Assembly (NCBI GenBank): GCA_965207375.1
Contig: OZ242274.1
Span: forward strand, 1,024,001-1,088,000
Length of the DNA: 64,000 nucleotides
Source of the DNA: Nitrosopumilaceae archaeon
GTDB lineage: Archaea > Thermoproteota > Nitrososphaeria > Nitrososphaerales > Nitrosopumilaceae
Reading direction: 5' to 3'
The notes under the pieces are model-generated. The model did not search any database. It was given only the letters and a program-made list of their open reading frames with translations, and was not told the DNA's origin. The position numbers and the translations under genes are program-made. Shown here piece after piece: positions 12,855 through 21,108 of this stretch. Numbering within the stretch: position 1 is the first letter of the stretch; each line of letters begins with the position of its first letter.

Positions 12855-14168
12855 TAGCAGATCTAACTAATAATCGATAGCAAATTTGTCAATTAAAGTC
12901 AACTAAAAGATCTATATGTCGATCTTGTTCCAAGATGGTTACAATGGATAAATTCCTACCAGATACAAACATGAAGAAATTGTACAAACTCAAAAAAGAA
13001 GAAAAAAATCCAAAGGTTGTACAGAGAATTACTGCATACATGTTAAAAAAGGAGGGCAAAACATTGTGGGAAATTTCAAATTCCATAAAGATACCGTACA
13101 CCACGGTTCAAAATTGGATAGACAGAATCAACAAGGAAGGCATTGATGCTAGATACGATAAGAAGCAACCTGGTGCACAGTGTAAGCTGGACAAGAAGCA
13201 GATAAACAAGCTAATACGTGATTTGAAAAAAGGACCACAAAAATGTGGTTATGATACTAATTTGTGGACATCACCCATAATACAAAGACACATCAAAAAA
13301 ATATTCAAGACAGATTACAATGTAAGTTCGGTATGGGCATTGATCACTAGACTTGATCTTCATCTAGTTGCACCTAGACCTAGAAACGACAAGGCAGCAA
13401 CCCCTGAGGAAATCGCAGTGTTCAAAAAAAAAGCTCACCGCAAGGTAAAATACTATAGCGACAAAGGACACACAATTATGACCATGGATGCTGCTCACAA
13501 GCTGGTGGCATCAGTGCCCAAAAAGGGCTGGTTTTTTGAAAAACGTCCTGTATTTATCACAGGCAAGAAAAAACCAAAGAAAAAATCCGCAAAAAATAAA
13601 TCTAAAAAATCCAAGAGTCTCACGATTATAGGTGCTATTGGCGCAGAGAAAGAATATTACTTTAGGTTTTACGATACAGGAAACTGGGTTAACGTGGAAA
13701 ACTTTTTGCAGGGTGTACACAAGAAATTCGGCAAGGTTCTGATGTTTATGGACAATGCAGCTTATCACAAAAAAGATGAGCTAAAACGTATCACAAGGGA
13801 GACAGGTGGTCAGATGCAGTTTGAGTTTTATCTAAAATATACTCCTGAACTCAATCCGATTGAGCCTGAATGGTCGGTCATGAAAAAGAGTATTGCAGGT
13901 ATTATAGCTACAAATGCTGAGCTCAAACGTATCATAGCTCGATCAATAAAAAACAAAACTATTCCAATAGTAAAAATGTTCGACTATTTGATACCGTAAT
14001 TTTGTTCTTTGATTCTTTTGTTTGTAACTATCAGATAATATGCTGTAATATTTTGTGCATTTCATGTTTAGTTGCTTTGATCGCAACTGTTGCAAGTGTC
14101 AATGTCAGGTCACGACTTTGTTTTTTAAAATATGTAGAAAAACTATTGATTATTAGTTAGATCTGCTA
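12855..14168 (+). mobile_element. IS630-family insertion sequence, apparently intact
   Basis: 26-bp TIR TAGCAGATCTAACTAATAATC(G/A)ATAG; flanked by AA on both sides. Confidence 0.95.
12935..13999 (+). CDS. IS630-family transposase
   Basis: HTH domains, DNAAYH, YTPELNPIE. Confidence 0.95.
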   Translation: MVTMDKFLPDTNMKKLYKLKKEEKNPKVVQRITAYMLKKEGKTLWEISNSIKIPYTTVQNWIDRINKEGIDARYDKKQPGAQCKLDKKQINKLIRDLKKGPQKCGYDTNLWTSPIIQRHIKKIFKTDYNVSSVWALITRLDLHLVAPRPRNDKAATPEEIAVFKKKAHRKVKYYSDKGHTIMTMDAAHKLVASVPKKGWFFEKRPVFITGKKKPKKKSAKNKSKKSKSLTIIGAIGAEKEYYFRFYDTGNWVNVENFLQGVHKKFGKVLMFMDNAAYHKKDELKRITRETGGQMQFEFYLKYTPELNPIEPEWSVMKKSIAGIIATNAELKRIIARSIKNKTIPIVKMFDYLIP

Positions 14169-14588: not shown

Positions 14589-14846
14589 ATGAAGATACAA
14601 ATCGATTGTGATGTCAAGTTCAAACGAACACATGCCATCTTAATACTGGCCATAGGTCTGGTAATAGTTACTGCAATTGGATTACATGTAGGTATGAATC
14701 CGCCATGTGTTGATGGCCAATACAAATACGTACACAGTGCAAATGATATGGGAATAGTAGTACAGGCGATGGATGGCAAGACCATAATTGATTTTAATCT
14801 AGAACCAGGTAACTACTGGGCAAAATACTATGAAATATGCAGATAA
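14589..14846 (+). CDS. Single-TM small protein, end of coupled chain
   Basis: AILILAIGLVIVTAIGL hydrophobic segment; ATGA overlap with 17-aa CxxC ORF 14539-14592. Confidence 0.7.
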   Translation: MKIQIDCDVKFKRTHAILILAIGLVIVTAIGLHVGMNPPCVDGQYKYVHSANDMGIVVQAMDGKTIIDFNLEPGNYWAKYYEICR

Positions 14847-14943
14847 AAGAGAACAAAAATTTAACCAGTTGTTCAAAATCTGTTAATCCACAAAGTCCTT
14901 ATTATATTAAATGCAATAGTGAGATTTATGGTCCCACTATTTT

Positions 14944-15440: not shown

Positions 15441-16082
15441 TCATGTCTTGTGTATTATCATTTCAAGTTGTTGCCATGTCCCGCTTTTTGGCTTTTTACG
15501 CGGTTGGCTTGTTTCCTTACAGTGCAGTATCGTCATACCGTTACCTAGTATACTGCATATTTCTGATTCAGTAAAAAAGTGTATTTTTAATCCTTGTTTT
15601 GGCCCATCATGGTACTGTATAGTAAATCCACCGTGCTTGTTTTTTTCAATAATTTTGTGGGCATGCCAGGGTACAGTAGATGCTGAATTGATGCGTAAAA
15701 ACAGCAAGCCGTTTTTGCGCAAAATTTGTACAGTTTTTGTAAAATAGCGATACACCGTACTATAATCACCATGCTGATATGATTGTATTGATACCACATA
15801 ATCATAATTTTCTGAAACATTCAAAATGTTTTTGCATGAAACTCTTTTTGTTTTTTTGAGCAATTGAGATATGGCAACCTTTGAGACATCTATACCCTTT
15901 ATGTCAAGTCCTGATAAAACCAACGGAAGATAGTTTCTCCCGTTACCACATCCTACATACAATCCTTCTCCTCGTGGTTTATATTTCAATATCGTCTTTA
16001 CAAATTTCACAGGTGCTTGGTGCTGATATCTTCCGGCTGCATATTGTCTGTCCCAACTGTGAGAAATTAAAACATCATCCAT
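15441..16082 (-). CDS. Class I SAM-dependent methyltransferase
   Basis: LYVGCGNGRN motif I, GIDVS, LRKNGLLF. Confidence 0.9.
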   Translation of the reverse strand: MDDVLISHSWDRQYAAGRYQHQAPVKFVKTILKYKPRGEGLYVGCGNGRNYLPLVLSGLDIKGIDVSKVAISQLLKKTKRVSCKNILNVSENYDYVVSIQSYQHGDYSTVYRYFTKTVQILRKNGLLFLRINSASTVPWHAHKIIEKNKHGGFTIQYHDGPKQGLKIHFFTESEICSILGNGMTILHCKETSQPRKKPKSGTWQQLEMIIHKT

Positions 16083-17553
16083 TTTTCATCAATTCAGATT
16101 TTTGTGGGAAAAACTGATCCCAGAATGAGAATGGAGGAGAGGCAATCACAAAACACGAAAATGATTTGTCAGATGTGACAATTACCTTGTGAGCCGTCTT
16201 TGTTGGTATTGTGAGATAATCGCCCTGTTTGAGATGATAGGTATGTTGCTTCTTAATCTGTTCTGGATCCCATGTAATAATATCTGCCTCGCCTGATTCG
16301 ACAAGATATGCCTCTTCAGATGTTGAATGGTAATGCCCACGCGTTGTAGAATTAGATTCAAACACGGCACGTACTACTGAAAAATTTCCAAGATCATGTT
16401 TTGAAGTAAATCTATATAATTTCCCCCATGGTCGGTTTTCCTCCTGTAACATATCTTTTGAAATATGGTAAGGCACAAGGTTGTTGTTAGGTAACATTAT
16501 TGATGCTATCTCTGTTTCTATGTTTGTAGCAAGTTTACAAATCCCTCCGTCGAGTTCTTGTGGAATCGTTTTTATCATAGTTAACAATATTCCTGAAAAT
16601 ACTATTTCCATTATGGTAGTTGATGTTCCATTACCACACATCAAGTTTATTGGTTTGGCCGAACCAATAATACCAATGCGTTTCTTTAGTTTTGCTTTAC
16701 TAAAGTTGCATTGTATAAGTGTCCCTGTTCTAGTTATTTCTATGTGGGCATCATCAAATTCAAATGTTCCAAGAGTCAACATACGTTTTGAAATTTCGCC
16801 TGTTCCACTACCTGCATTTATTACTATTGCACCATTTTTCATCAGTAGAAATTGGCGCACATCAATACCTTTACCGTCCGTACTTGTGGTACATGATATT
16901 ATCACATCCTGAATTTGAATTACATCTCGTATGTCATCTACAACTGTAAATCCATGTGCCGAGGCAATCGCCCTTTTTATGACATCTGAATCCATTATTG
17001 TGACATGACTTTTGTGCGATTTACAAACTTCTGCCAGTCCTTCACCCACATGTCCATAACCGATAATCAAGACATTTTTACCAATTAAAGAAATTGATGA
17101 TTCAGACAACAAACATGATATGATTGATTCAGGTGTGGCTAATTTGTTTTCTATTCTTGTTTTTAAACTTGATTCGGCCATGTTTATGACAGGATATGGT
17201 AATAATGCATCTTTTGCTTTCTTAATACCACCAGTGGTCTGTTCTATCGAATATATGGTACTCTTTAAACTTGGAGTATTCTTACAAATTAATTCTGTGA
17301 CACAGTGACCGTCTTCTACAATGACATCAATGGACTCGATTATGGAAAAAATTTGATTTTGATTAATTATTGTAACCTTGTTTATTTTTGATACTGTATC
17401 ATTTCTGTAGCTTTTTGGAAGATAATATACTCTGACACCCAACAAAACTAGATTTTGAAGAAAAATTTTTGTGGCATGGGTGTTGTGCGTACAGACAAGA
17501 ATATTTCTTTCATTTAATGAATTTGGATATCTTTTTACAATTGATGATATCAT
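16075..17553 (-). CDS. Divergent adenosylhomocysteinase-like protein fused to C-terminal cupin
   Basis: CTH, EDG, EQTTGG, KTRIEN, GYGHVGEG, NAG, PINLMCGNG match the SAHH layout; RPWG and HYH-x4-E...H cupin motifs. Confidence 0.85.
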   Translation of the reverse strand: MISSIVKRYPNSLNERNILVCTHNTHATKIFLQNLVLLGVRVYYLPKSYRNDTVSKINKVTIINQNQIFSIIESIDVIVEDGHCVTELICKNTPSLKSTIYSIEQTTGGIKKAKDALLPYPVINMAESSLKTRIENKLATPESIISCLLSESSISLIGKNVLIIGYGHVGEGLAEVCKSHKSHVTIMDSDVIKRAIASAHGFTVVDDIRDVIQIQDVIISCTTSTDGKGIDVRQFLLMKNGAIVINAGSGTGEISKRMLTLGTFEFDDAHIEITRTGTLIQCNFSKAKLKKRIGIIGSAKPINLMCGNGTSTTIMEIVFSGILLTMIKTIPQELDGGICKLATNIETEIASIMLPNNNLVPYHISKDMLQEENRPWGKLYRFTSKHDLGNFSVVRAVFESNSTTRGHYHSTSEEAYLVESGEADIITWDPEQIKKQHTYHLKQGDYLTIPTKTAHKVIVTSDKSFSCFVIASPPFSFWDQFFPQKSELMKNG

Positions 17554-18769
17554 TGTAAAATCAATACATATTTGGAATATAAAGTCTATTTAATACATCA
17601 GTTAACCCACCAGCAACGCAGAATCTGCCGCAATGTTTCGGTGGGGGCTTTGGATTGATCTGATATTTGGTTATAATTGTAATTTTAAACTAAATCATTT
17701 ACTGTATCATCTCAAATTAAATTCTCCTTTTAAATTCAAATTAAAATTATATCGTCCTCTCAAAATTTAAATTCAAAAATCAAATTAAAAATTAAAATCA
17801 AAATAAAATGATTCTATAGCTAAAGCATTATTTTTATGCACAAGATCAAAAAAATTTGTCCCATACATTAAGAGATCAGTCCTGCATACACCAAAATATG
17901 AAACCAATCAAACGCATGGAACATGATCTCAAGCCCCGCAAGACTCACTATGACGCACAAATGAGACTCAGAATGATATACGCCATTGAACATGGAATAC
18001 ACGTAGACGATGTGGCTGAAATCTTTGGCGTATCAAGACGCGTATTATACGAGTGGAAGACCAAATACGAACAACATGGTCTTGAGGGGCTTGAGGAGGC
18101 TCCCCGTACAGGAAGGCCGTCGTTTCTTTCAGACAAGAAAATAAAACGATGCATGGATAACATCCAAAAACCAGGCAAGATACCAAATGCAAAAAAATTG
18201 CGAGAAGAGATCCACAAAAGTCACGGCATCTGGTACAGCAAATCAGGAATACGAAGGATATTGGCCAAAAACGGTCATACCTTCAAAAAAATTATGCCGG
18301 TTCATGTACGTGCAGCTACAAACGAGGAGGCAGACATTTGGCGTAAAAAGAATCTTCCAAAGATTAGGAGACTGCAAAAAGAGGACCACAAACTTGTTGC
18401 CCTAGATGAGGCATCAGTTGAAATTGATTCAAATTCTAGATATGGATATTGCAAACGCGGTACGAGACTGTATGCCACATACAACGGTACAAAGCAAAAA
18501 GTGCCTATAATTGGCGCCATGGTAGAAGACGGACGATCTATGTTTCGTACAAAACCCAAATTTAATTCACCTACGTTTATAGAATTTTTATGAGATATGC
18601 AACGGACAATGGGGCCCACAGTAATTGTGATGGATAAGGCATCATATCACAGGTCCAAAGATATAAAACAATGGTTTAAAGGATTCTTCTGCTTTATCTG
18701 TTGGTCAAAGTCAATATGCAAATTTTCTCCGAATTGCCCGTGCCTAGATTACTGCCTGTACCAGCAGAT

Positions 18770-18839
18770 CAATCACACATTATCAAAGCAATCACACATT
18801 ATCAAAGCAATCACACATTATCAAAGCAATCACACATTA
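18770..18839. repeat. 19-bp tandem repeat, ~3.6 copies
   Basis: CAATCACACATTATCAAAG units. Confidence 0.95.
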
Positions 18840-18902
18840 GCAGAACATAATCTTCTCCGAGTTGTCACTGTTTCATCACACATGTAACTTTGACATTAGA
18901 GT

Positions 18903-20270
18903 TTATTGCACGTACAGTGCAGCGTTTGATATTACTGTCCTCCATTTTTGTCCGTGTATAGTTATACCTGCAGCCTCTGCAGGCGTCTTGCCTCCAAGAC
19001 TCGAGTGAGGTCGCATGAAATTGTAATAAATATCACATCCTGCAAATATTGGCGAGTTTTTACTTTTAATGCCGCGTCTGGGTCGTTGTATAGCACGTAA
19101 TGTCCCGTTGAATCTTTCCTGGACATTGTTGTTGTTCTTTTTGGAAATTCCTGCATTTGATATGTGTGTGCAATGTTGATGTATCGCGTTTGGTGCAGCA
19201 TACACTGATTCAAATGCTTGTGCATATGAGGGCAGGCCATCGCTTACAAATTCTGTAGGTTTCTTTCCGGCACGGGCTGCTGCAGCTTTGAGTAGGTTTT
19301 CTGCATTGTGTCCGTCCTTGCAGTTTGCAACCTCCCATGCTAGTAAAAATCTGGTATCATAATCAGTCTCTGCAAAAAGATAATTTTGTTTACCTCTTAT
19401 TGAAATGTATTCCTCGTCTGCACAGAATCGATTGCCTGTATTAATTGAAAGTGACATCAGGTATACATACACCATTGTTACAAATTTGATTATCCATCTG
19501 TATATCGTAGATACACACACATACACTCCCTTTTGTGCTAGCGTGTCTTGTATTGCACTAGGTGTATGTCCCTTATAGTAGGCATCAAGTGCATCTAGAA
19601 TCGCCCATGATTCTATTCGTGTGTGTTCCATGCCGCCCCTGTACCCAAAGACACGATTGCAATTTTTGCATTGGTATCGTTGCGTAGTGCCATGTCTACG
19701 CTGTATATGACCATATTTTATGATGTGTTCGTCACCGCAATGCATACAGTGTGATGGAATCTCTATTAGAACTATTTCTGTGGTTTTTTTCTCAGTATTG
19801 TCATCTGCATCTTTGGGCTGTTTGTCCTGGCAAGGCAGCTTAGCTGCATCTTTGGATTGTTCATCAATTATTGTCTCTGCATCCCTGTCTACAGTATCTG
19901 CAATTACTGCTAGGATATGCTTGCATTGAGCCTGTCTGTATTTGTGATCTGGACAGTCACATGACCAGGAATTTTTTTTCTGTATCACGGTATATCTGAT
20001 GTTGTCCTTAGATTGGGACTGTACTGTGTAATGGTTATGCCTGACTTTTTTTATTGCATTTTGTGTTTCTAGTATTTTCAAGGCACGATTTCCGCGTCCT
20101 TGTGCACCCTTGCTCCAAGATACACGTGTACTCATCCATCTAGTAACTCTTGTCATTTTGTCAGTACTGCGCGTAAGCAGTACCGATGTCTTGTTTCGTA
20201 TAGCCTCAAATTTTTCGTGTAGTTTAAATTTTGATCTTGTATATGATTTTTGATATGTTAGTCCCATCAT
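18903..20270 (-). CDS. IS6-type DDE transposase with N-terminal SWIM and zinc-ribbon domains
   Basis: CDCPD..CKH (SWIM), CMHC..YQCKNC, ADE, SDGLPSY, NNVQERFN, YNFMRPHSSLGGKTPA. Confidence 0.9.
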   Translation of the reverse strand: MMGLTYQKSYTRSKFKLHEKFEAIRNKTSVLLTRSTDKMTRVTRWMSTRVSWSKGAQGRGNRALKILETQNAIKKVRHNHYTVQSQSKDNIRYTVIQKKNSWSCDCPDHKYRQAQCKHILAVIADTVDRDAETIIDEQSKDAAKLPCQDKQPKDADDNTEKKTTEIVLIEIPSHCMHCGDEHIIKYGHIQRRHGTTQRYQCKNCNRVFGYRGGMEHTRIESWAILDALDAYYKGHTPSAIQDTLAQKGVYVCVSTIYRWIIKFVTMVYVYLMSLSINTGNRFCADEEYISIRGKQNYLFAETDYDTRFLLAWEVANCKDGHNAENLLKAAAARAGKKPTEFVSDGLPSYAQAFESVYAAPNAIHQHCTHISNAGISKKNNNNVQERFNGTLRAIQRPRRGIKSKNSPIFAGCDIYYNFMRPHSSLGGKTPAEAAGITIHGQKWRTVISNAALYVQ

Positions 20271-21108
20271 TGCGAAATACGATGGGACTACATGTCGTGT
20301 GTATTTGGATCATGTGGGTTAACAAATTTTGAAAAAATGGTTAAATTTTTGATCTCTTTTACCGGTACAAAAGCAAATTATGCTGCAATTGAAGAAATTT
20401 TAGGCACGCGCAATCCGGAGAAAATTTGCATAGTGACTTTGACCAACAATTAACGCTGGAGAATCGTTTAAAGATAATCCAAAAACCGTGCCAATATATC
20501 TGCCCACTGGTTCTCCCCACATGAATGACATAGAGGGTAAGTGGGGTGTTACAAAATCTGAGATAAGTGATATCGTATATCAAAATATTAATGAATTCAA
20601 GGCAGGTCTATACAAGGCACTGCGTCACAATAACTATCCAACAAACATTTACCAAAAATTATTCAAGCGTCTAGATAATGCTGCAGAAGCATGTATCATC
20701 CATGCAAGACACAAACTTGGATCATGCTGATCTGTTTTAGTAACAAGTTACGCACATAACAAAATCGTATCATCTAATTGATATGGATCATTTCATAAAT
20801 TCGATCTGACACTGTACGTCTGTTTGTACTTGATTCTTATACAAAACATGTGATCGGCCAAGATATCCCAATACAATTGTGAATCCACTTTGTATGACTG
20901 AATTTTGTTATTTTATTTACTTGCAAATTAGTGCAGAAAAATAATGCTTTAGCTATATAGTATATGGGGGCATTATTTTAATCTAGTAAGATAAGGTGTC
21001 ACTTTGAAGCGACAGTCTATTTTACTATTTTAGTCAAACACAAACTTGTCATCAGGATTGACAAAATATTGAAAAATGGTCAAGGTCTTTGTAGATCTGT
21101 TGATTGTT

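Follow-up and report, generated by a model that had tools for sequence, protein, structure and literature searches.

The window, the whole stretch of 64,000 nucleotides (nt) analysed here, covers positions 1,024,001 to 1,088,000 of contig OZ242274.1 from a Nitrosopumilaceae archaeon (assembly GCA_965207375.1), and positions below are counted from its first letter. It contains a pair of overlapping genes on the reverse strand. The first gene, SC, encodes a protein like S-adenosylhomocysteine (SAH) hydrolase, with a binding site for nicotinamide adenine dinucleotide (NAD) and a cupin domain at its C-terminus. The second gene, MT, encodes a class I S-adenosylmethionine (SAM) methyltransferase and is present as a single copy in the host genome (Table 1). 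The two genes overlap by 8 nt at 16075-16082. Both open reading frames (ORFs) and their overlap agree with an initial annotation of this DNA, and every motif that it quoted could be located in SC. EQTTGG (residues 104-109), KTRIEN (131-136), GYGHVGEG (165-172), NAGS (246-249) and GTS (309-311) lie in the SAH-hydrolase-like part, and RPWG (374-377), HYHSTSEE (407-414) and H455 lie in the cupin.

Table 1. Features of the SC/MT locus and its flanks in window coordinates (IS, insertion sequence; aa, amino acids)
Feature	Position	Strand	Basis
SC gene, 492-aa SAH-hydrolase-like NAD enzyme with C-terminal cupin	16075..17553	(-)	ORF, translation, Pfam/NCBIfam, AlphaFold2/Foldseek
SAH-hydrolase-like part of SC (residues 1 to ~365), substrate- and NAD-binding domains	16459..17553	(-)	family-profile match, residue tally
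Cupin domain of SC (residues ~370-485), predicted ligands H407, H409, E414, H455	16099..16446	(-)	Cupin_2, domain model
FSFWDQFF, invariant C-terminal tail motif, SC residues 475-482	16108..16131	(-)	residue tally
MT gene, 213-aa class I SAM methyltransferase, TehB/Methyltransf_11-like	15441..16082	(-)	ORF, Pfam/NCBIfam
IS630-family element flanking the pair	12855..14168	(+)	transposase ORF 12935-13999, DDE_3 and HTH domains, 26-nt inverted ends 96% complementary
Second IS630-family element	17815..20957	(+)	inverted-repeat pairs, truncated DDE_3 transposase ORF 17856-18593
Inner IS splitting the second IS630 element	18675..20472		rve/DDE_Tnp_IS240 transposase 18903-20270 (-)
Dispersed ~100-nt repeat directly upstream of the SC start codon	17596..17694	(.)	

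In SC, the Pfam models AdoHcyase_NAD (58 bits, cut-off 27) and Cupin_2 (33.7 bits, cut-off 27.2) both score above their cut-offs, and the NAD domains of 2-hydroxyacid dehydrogenases are matched as well. MT is matched by Methyltransf_11 (30 bits, cut-off 21.2) and TehB (27.1 bits, cut-off 20.4). No curated Pfam or NCBIfam model spans the full length of SC. Proteins of its family are currently named 'cupin domain-containing protein', 'adenosylhomocysteinase' or a composite of SAH hydrolase and cupin, and literature searches on a fusion of SAH hydrolase and cupin found no relevant publication. Contigs from three public sequencing runs (two studies, one of which may be the source of the assembly itself) span both the junction between the SAH-hydrolase-like part and the cupin and the junction between SC and MT. 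Because they do so without differences, the fusion is not an assembly artefact.

The fold of the N-terminal part is that of SAH hydrolase. The SC family profile matched solved SAH hydrolases with an expectation value (E) of 1.3e-44 over profile positions 1-372. The AlphaFold2 model of SC (21 family sequences) has a mean predicted local distance difference test score (pLDDT) of 87 and a predicted template modelling score (pTM) of 0.61, and the arrangement of its domains is uncertain. With this model, Foldseek returned solved SAH hydrolases as the best matches (E about 1e-24), among them the human AHCY-like proteins 3gvp and 3mtg.

SAH hydrolase (AhcY) is a textbook one-reaction enzyme. Against the NCBI equivalog models for it, SC scores 127.1 bits with NF004005 (cut-off 275) and 115 bits with TIGR00936 (cut-off 497.6). 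Two canonical ahcY genes lie elsewhere in the host genome, with TIGR00936 scores of 542 and 493 bits in a search that gave SC 114, and two other SC-bearing archaeal genomes have one canonical AhcY each. We built a tree of SC and AhcY proteins with 74 rows (quick search, midpoint root, several long-branch rows). The 26 SC-family rows form one group with a support of 99 in the Shimodaira-Hasegawa-like approximate likelihood ratio test (SH-aLRT), which places SC outside the AhcY clade, and a branch of support 98 parts the group from both AhcY proteins of the host. Because the genome holds two canonical ahcY genes, the scores fall below the curated cut-offs and the family forms a separate clade, SC is, as judged from its sequence, not the housekeeping enzyme of SAH recycling. 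This agrees with the initial annotation.

The sister group of SC consists of P0059, P0063 and P0065, which are cupin-less or cupin-bearing and have the motifs EQT, ATPE, NAGS and PINL..GT in common with SC. Another protein, P0086, has a cupin but is placed elsewhere in the tree on a long branch. Compared with AhcY (TIGR00936, NF004005; PDB 3x2e, 7r39), SC shares the two-domain fold, the NAD motif, the catalytic His, Asp, Lys and Asn, and the Thr-rich loop. It differs in having the cupin and a conserved tail in place of the C-terminal segment, and a shorter N-terminus. The shortening amounts to about 24 residues relative to the host's own AhcY, and internal deletions are present too.

Meanwhile, we notice a peculiarity of the second ahcY paralogue of the host (G000:C1:1771505-1772722; L002:1489-2655). 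It has Gln at the position of the catalytic His (CLQLTKET versus CLHITKET in the first paralogue), and it retains the motifs DDG, EETT, TKHxFDN, NVGHFD and EGHPPE. Its score of 492.8 bits is slightly below the cut-off of TIGR00936. This paralogue may be a histidine-less partner or a pseudo-enzyme.

To describe the active site, residues were tallied in an alignment of 46 SC-family proteins, fragments included, and canonical positions were assigned through alignment with the host's own AhcY genes. We take the human numbering to be His55, Asp131, Lys186 and Asn191 for the catalytic residues, with Glu156, Asp190, the gate His301-Phe302 and His353 as further positions. The catalytic His (H23) is kept in 38 of the 46 proteins, the others having a gap (6) or Tyr (2). 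D81 is kept in 41, T106 and K131 in 43 each, and N136 in 44. The glycines of the NAD motif (G165, G167 and G170) and an acidic residue at position 188, the site of the NAD ribose, are each found in 46/46. The predicted core for oxidation of the ribose 3' position is kept throughout the family.

The tally of key residues also covered Q105, E135, S249 and T310 of SC. Canonical Glu156 is replaced by Gln in 43 of the 46 proteins and Asp190 by Glu in 44. At the gate, His301 has become Ser or Thr in every protein and Phe302 has become Gly in 43, and His353 is Thr in 40. The changes of conserved motifs claimed in the initial annotation are thus real, and they are uniform throughout the 46 proteins. 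The nucleobase fingerprint has changed as well. SAH-preferring enzymes have HxTxE(Q) and those preferring S-inosylhomocysteine (SIH) have HxExK, according to PMC10978960. The host's first AhcY has the normal HITKE. The SC family has Hx(T/K)x(A/S), and SC of the window reads H-N-T-H-A. The fifth position is A in 26 proteins, S in 11, and E, L and P in one each, with 6 gaps.

The replaced features are presumably the ones that tie the canonical enzymes to adenine or hypoxanthine, to homocysteine and to the addition of water. With the fingerprint, the gate His-Phe and Glu156 replaced, the substrate and the outcome would therefore differ from those of SAH hydrolysis. The family is under purifying selection, with ratios of non-synonymous to synonymous substitution rates (dN/dS) of 0.19-0.36 in 6 unsaturated SC pairs.

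The four predicted cupin ligands (3His-1Glu) are present in 43-44 of the 46 family proteins, and the remainder are gaps. The cupin profile matched oxalate-decarboxylase-type bicupins best (7e-11), and also quercetinases, cupin-type phosphoglucose isomerases and CapF. The model of the domain has a pLDDT of 84, and Foldseek matched it to CapF, Ni-quercetinase and cupin-type phosphoglucose isomerase at template modelling (TM) scores of 0.60-0.74. CapF is the best structural match (TM 0.70-0.74), and Ni-quercetinase and oxalate decarboxylase score alike. The model confirms the double-stranded beta-helix fold, and we regard the domain as a generic predicted metal cupin. Of the initial description, a metal cupin with intact ligands is retained, but its assignment to the mannose-6-phosphate-isomerase type is not, as cupins of the mannose-6-phosphate and phosphoglucose isomerases are among the weaker matches.

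The motif FSFWDQFF follows the barrel, and its residues W478, D479 and Q480 are found in 43-44 of the 46 proteins. Past the motif, residues 486-492 have a pLDDT below 50 in the monomer model. FSFWDQFF occupies the place of the C-terminal tail of canonical SAH hydrolase, which covers the NAD of the neighbouring subunit (PMC10978960).

Searches of large collections revealed that the SC family is small and well separated. Among 5.8 billion clustered proteins there are 36 SC-family clusters besides the query (336-538 aa, E 7e-156 to 5e-71), and below a gap the ordinary adenosylhomocysteinases come next, at 1.5e-16. None of the 39 proteins listed (range searched 270-861 aa) is a fusion of SC with a methyltransferase. 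Among 1.84 billion representatives, 27 proteins were found at E 1e-30, the query included. A protein-atlas search with SC gave generic short clusters of the SAH-hydrolase family only, at 0.76-0.77, which is below the meaningful level.

With one genome per species, we obtained 14 SC-family loci. Eleven are in metagenome-assembled genomes (MAGs) of Nitrosopumilaceae/Thaumarchaeota and three in bacteria of the candidate phyla radiation (CPR), namely two Saccharimonadia and one Berkelbacteria; one source names an Uhrbacteria member. Decay is seen in 4 of the 11 archaeal loci: an IS interrupts L011, L012 has broken up into three pieces, and only remnants are left in L017 and L019. A single-protein query found SC in 0 of 60 relatives at E 1e-30. 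The family profile found SC-level matches (197-689 bits) in 6 of 301 genomes of the host's family (five of the 301 are flagged unpublished and contribute to the denominator only). They include the host, G114 with two loci, G203, G181 with three in-frame stops and G223 with a fragment. Another 163 genomes match the profile at 1e-40 or better; among the matches listed these score 141-154 bits and cover the SAH-hydrolase part, the level of the host's own two AhcY proteins (144-146 bits). The family is thus patchy in Nitrosopumilaceae and CPR bacteria and often decaying. It recurs in other genomes, and the fusion is not peculiar to this assembly.

The MT family adjoins SC in 10 intact loci, the window included. 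MT precedes SC in seven of them, directly upstream and on the same strand (L005-L010, L015), and directly follows SC in three (window, L025, L027); MT fragments are left in L011 and L029. No other neighbour is conserved across the SC loci. The remaining loci are uninformative for neighbours: three are cut at the SC start (L012, L024, L028), L026 ends 470 bp past SC, and L023 has 390 bp past SC and unrelated genes before it. The link to a methyltransferase that the initial annotation drew from one locus is conserved, in both gene orders.

MT occurs in 22 of the 301 related genomes, and all six SC-bearing genomes are among these 22. The dependence is one-sided, of SC on MT and not of MT on SC. 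In 18 of the 25 MT loci fetched the neighbours are variable and no SC lies within 1.5 kb (L037 is uncertain, as its contig ends 200 bp past MT). A tree of MT proteins with 37 rows shows those linked to SC in scattered places, and at least 5 changes are needed to explain them. The nearest relatives differ between the MT and the SC of the window, and the gene order differs between the window and L005. The pairing has been assembled or lost repeatedly, which argues for a functional link between the two genes, with MT also working without SC. A prediction of the complex between SC and MT (score 0.00, mark 0.32) speaks neither for nor against binding.

MT itself has a class I fold with motif I (VGCGNG) and weak matches to solved TehB. 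It shares fold and motif with the TehB/TPMT-type methyltransferases, but it falls far below the TehB equivalog cut-offs (30 versus 303, 28.6 versus 219.5 and 25.1 versus 218 bits). The family to which it belongs is separate and has no name; its members are about 225-250 aa long and have invariant residues of their own.

On the basis of these results, we propose that SC and MT may form a small, horizontally moving accessory module that acts on a ribosyl-bearing metabolite, through transient NAD oxidation and metal-cupin chemistry. We put the probability of this reading at roughly 0.45. The target would most likely be a metabolite with a ribofuranosyl-type, nucleoside-like group, and not bulk SAH. 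In the SAH-hydrolase-like domain, bound NAD+ would transiently oxidise the 3'-hydroxyl, with Lys131 as the base and with the sugar held in position by Asn136, Thr106 and Glu135. Next, His23 and Asp81 would act on the acidified neighbouring C-H. Cupins epimerise and keto-isomerise in sugar pathways, and the 3His-1Glu metal centre of SC may handle the keto or enediol(ate) species by epimerisation, keto-isomerisation or O2-dependent cleavage. The neighbouring MT would methylate the substrate or the product, and in some bacteria a TauD-type dioxygenase may add a hydroxylation. We infer the chemistry, the order of the steps and the substrate class alike. The earlier suggestion that the pair makes or detoxifies a methylated nucleoside or sugar is a reasonable guess.

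Part of such a scheme has a precedent in AgmF of angustmycin biosynthesis. As described in PMC8599513, AgmF is an SAH-hydrolase homologue that rejects SAH and acts as an NAD-dependent dehydratase of a nucleoside, by transient NAD oxidation of the nucleoside sugar. Among the literature examined, it is the one characterised case of the SAH-hydrolase fold doing other chemistry. Mutagenesis in that study identified H56, D129, K184, D188 and H299 as essential residues of AgmF. Three of these five are identical in SC, D188 corresponds to Glu and H299 corresponds to Ser or Thr in 46/46; these positions were matched by way of the common alignment with the canonical enzymes rather than against the sequence of AgmF. 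AgmF, in contrast to SC, is without a cupin.

The combination of domains resembles CapF (Cap5F; PDB 3st7, 2zkl, 4yrd) of the UDP-N-acetyl-L-fucosamine (UDP-L-FucNAc) pathway of S. aureus. CapF consists of an NAD(P) Rossmann domain and a C-terminal cupin, and performs C3-epimerisation and then keto-reduction (PMC3699295). However, its N-terminal domain is a short-chain dehydrogenase, whereas that of SC has the SAH-hydrolase fold, and the identity with the SC cupin is 19%. As other cupins (Ni-quercetinase, oxalate decarboxylase) match equally well, we consider CapF an analogy and not a member of the same family.

Several points weigh against the proposed module. To reach the cupin, the oxidised intermediate would have to depart from the NAD site with NADH still bound there, which is unusual for the SAH-hydrolase fold, and the model, as its pTM indicates, leaves the placement of the two domains relative to each other uncertain. 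The matches of the cupin do not tell whether it is an isomerase, an epimerase or a dioxygenase. In L016 and L028, the end of SC is overlapped by a different class I methyltransferase, nearest to the CmoM and BioC models, and L013 and L014 have no adjacent methyltransferase. Two unrelated methyltransferase subfamilies would fit a shared link through SAH at least as well as a shared substrate. The MT family comprises at least 581 clusters at E 1e-10, of the TehB/TPMT-like small-molecule type, and 16 of the 22 MT-bearing genomes have no SC-level match. As MT often occurs without SC, its substrate need not be a nucleoside. The mutual dependence implied by the 'compact pathway' of the initial annotation is therefore overstated, since the MT family is far larger than that of SC and mostly without SC.

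A bolder proposal, which we consider doubtful, is that SC founds a new enzyme class. It would combine SAH-hydrolase-type transient 3'-oxidation and a metal-cupin centre in one polypeptide, and convert a thioether or methylated ribonucleoside, possibly the SAH released by MT as a by-product, to a product of no known route. Such a product could be, for example, a keto-sugar that has been rearranged or cleaved, or else a nucleoside of a non-canonical kind. If this is true, it would open a new branch of SAM-derived metabolism for ammonia-oxidising archaea and CPR bacteria, which lack Pfs and LuxS. With regard to the accessory module proposed above, the family combines a coherent, conserved re-tooling of the active site with a fused metal domain, in two abundant and poorly cultivable groups, the marine and terrestrial ammonia-oxidising archaea and the CPR bacteria. 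Its activity, once defined, would add a reaction type to nucleoside and SAM-derived metabolism and might explain an accessory trait of some Nitrosopumilaceae.

The main rival to the module on a separate ribosyl metabolite is that SC handles a by-product, and we judge it unlikely. In this case, SC would still take as its substrate the SAH, or a closely related thioether nucleoside like SIH or methylthioadenosine (MTA), that its partner methyltransferase releases. It would either remove an inhibitor locally or convert it to a product other than adenosine and homocysteine, with the cupin processing the sugar-derived fragment. SAM and SAH are what the partner methyltransferases certainly have in common, and two class I subfamilies stand beside SC, type A at 10 intact and 2 decayed loci and type B at L016 and L028. 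The occurrence of MT in 6/6 SC genomes, with 16 further genomes having MT and not SC, is expected if SC depends on the output of MT, and the ribose-binding and catalytic core is intact. On the other hand, the adenine/hypoxanthine fingerprint is lost: at its fifth position, only one of the 40 sequences without a gap there has E, Q or K, the residues given by PMC10978960. Both gate residues, His and Phe, have been replaced in every one of the 46 proteins, the archaeal hosts retain canonical AhcY, and SC occurs without an adjacent methyltransferase in L013 and L014, where a 207-aa protein downstream matches nothing in Pfam or NCBIfam and is not similar to MT.

We also considered whether SC replaces a missing AhcY or Pfs in its CPR hosts, and set this idea aside. 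The three SC-bearing CPR genomes are without both, but the absence is uninformative because most relatives in their order are also without both (of 40 sampled genomes of unknown completeness, 37 gave no match to AhcY and all 40 gave none to Pfs).

We give even less weight to a pathway without nucleosides, in which the SAH-hydrolase fold would serve as an ordinary NAD dehydrogenase for a polyol, a sugar or an onium compound of the trimethylammonium or sulfonium type, together with MT and, in bacteria, a TauD-type hydroxylase. A TauD-family protein adjoins SC in five loci (L013, L014, L025, L027, L029). Among named proteins, it comes closest to TmpA and to two enzymes of the carnitine pathway, gamma-butyrobetaine dioxygenase and trimethyllysine dioxygenase, and these matches are weak (NCBIfam 4.7e-8; PDB 6npb 7.6e-6). 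The loss of the base-binding motif and the matches to 2-hydroxyacid dehydrogenase NAD domains would also fit. However, all residues that contact the ribose diol in SAH hydrolases are kept or conservatively changed in SC. The TauD-type gene is missing from the window and from all archaeal loci, and the TauD matches cover the C-terminal part only, far under the curated cut-offs.

A role in defence or antagonism, where the two enzymes would produce a modified nucleoside to stop viruses or competitors from replicating, appears improbable. The initial annotation had suggested antiviral defence, which the results do not support, and no evidence was found on symbiosis, its other suggestion. The patchy distribution at 6 of 301 related genomes, the IS elements flanking the window copy and the frequent decay (L011, L012, L017, L019, G181, G223) would suit such a module, and an SAH-hydrolase-like domain fused to a SAVED sensor exists (P0110). 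However, with PADLOC 2.0 SC matched 0 families at E up to 0.001, and MT matched only the mad2 methyltransferase model, weakly (2.6e-7). The neighbours are surface proteins, a TFIIB-like protein, a Fic protein, a flavin adenine dinucleotide (FAD) oxidoreductase and similar genes, and not defence genes. Among 2.9 million viral contigs, we found no SC-family member and only two weak matches to the NAD domain.

As a separate observation, P0110 is a protein of 709 aa in which a SAVED sensor, as in cyclic-oligonucleotide defence, is joined to a weak AdoHcyase_NAD-like domain. P0110 is no relative of the SC family, but possibly shows an SAH-hydrolase-like fold used as an effector.

Finally, we find it highly improbable that SC has no catalytic activity and serves as a scaffold or regulator, in the manner of the eukaryotic AHCY-like proteins. 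In favour of this reading, SC departs from the canonical enzymes at four active-site positions, and the human AHCY-like structures are among its best structural matches. Against it, all four catalytic residues (His, Asp, Lys, Asn), the NAD motif and the four cupin ligands are conserved across distant lineages, and dN/dS is low. The replacements are also uniform in the family, which would be expected if the activity had changed and had not been lost.

The host is an ammonia-oxidising archaeon with a genome of 4.3 Mb that contains an archaeal AmoA gene, and the archaeal genes for Pus10, SRP54 and diphthamide synthase are near the SC/MT pair. The pair sits between the two IS630-type elements of Table 1. 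A composite transposon is unsupported, as the flanking elements have no long DNA repeat in common. A compositional island was rejected as well: the GC content is 35.0% in SC, 36.6% in MT and 38.0% in the window, a gap too small to argue for foreign origin. The inner IS has inverted ends of 72 nt at 18675-18746 and 20401-20472, and a solo copy of 49 nt of this end is found at 14844-14892. A 19-nt unit is tandemly repeated at 18765-18840 in the region of the nested IS.

The public-run contigs end at the repeat upstream of SC. This repeat has 10 further copies in the host genome with 72-89% identity. It matches no Rfam family and shows no significant fold (z -1.6); it may be a miniature mobile element.

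Several other SC loci have features of their own. In the two Saccharimonadia loci L013:8800-9944 and L014:8746-9839, a split pair of chromate-transporter (CHR) genes lies divergently upstream of SC, and the TauD-type dioxygenase gene is downstream, as is that of the 207-aa protein. One thaumarchaeal MAG carries two MT-SC pairs on separate contigs (L006:2719-4967, L007:9237-11485). The two SC copies are 92% identical at the protein level, with a synonymous divergence (dS) of 0.19, and represent either a duplication or two strains binned together. In a Nitrosopumilus (L005:7000-17600), the MT-SC pair lies within a long same-strand run of small ORFs, including TFIIB-like and ATP-grasp-like ones. 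Two of these small-ORF families are shared with L019:7000-15000, where SC has shrunk to an ORF of 277 aa that joins N- and C-terminal remnants. The region common to L005 and L019 may be an integrated element carrying the MT-SC pair.

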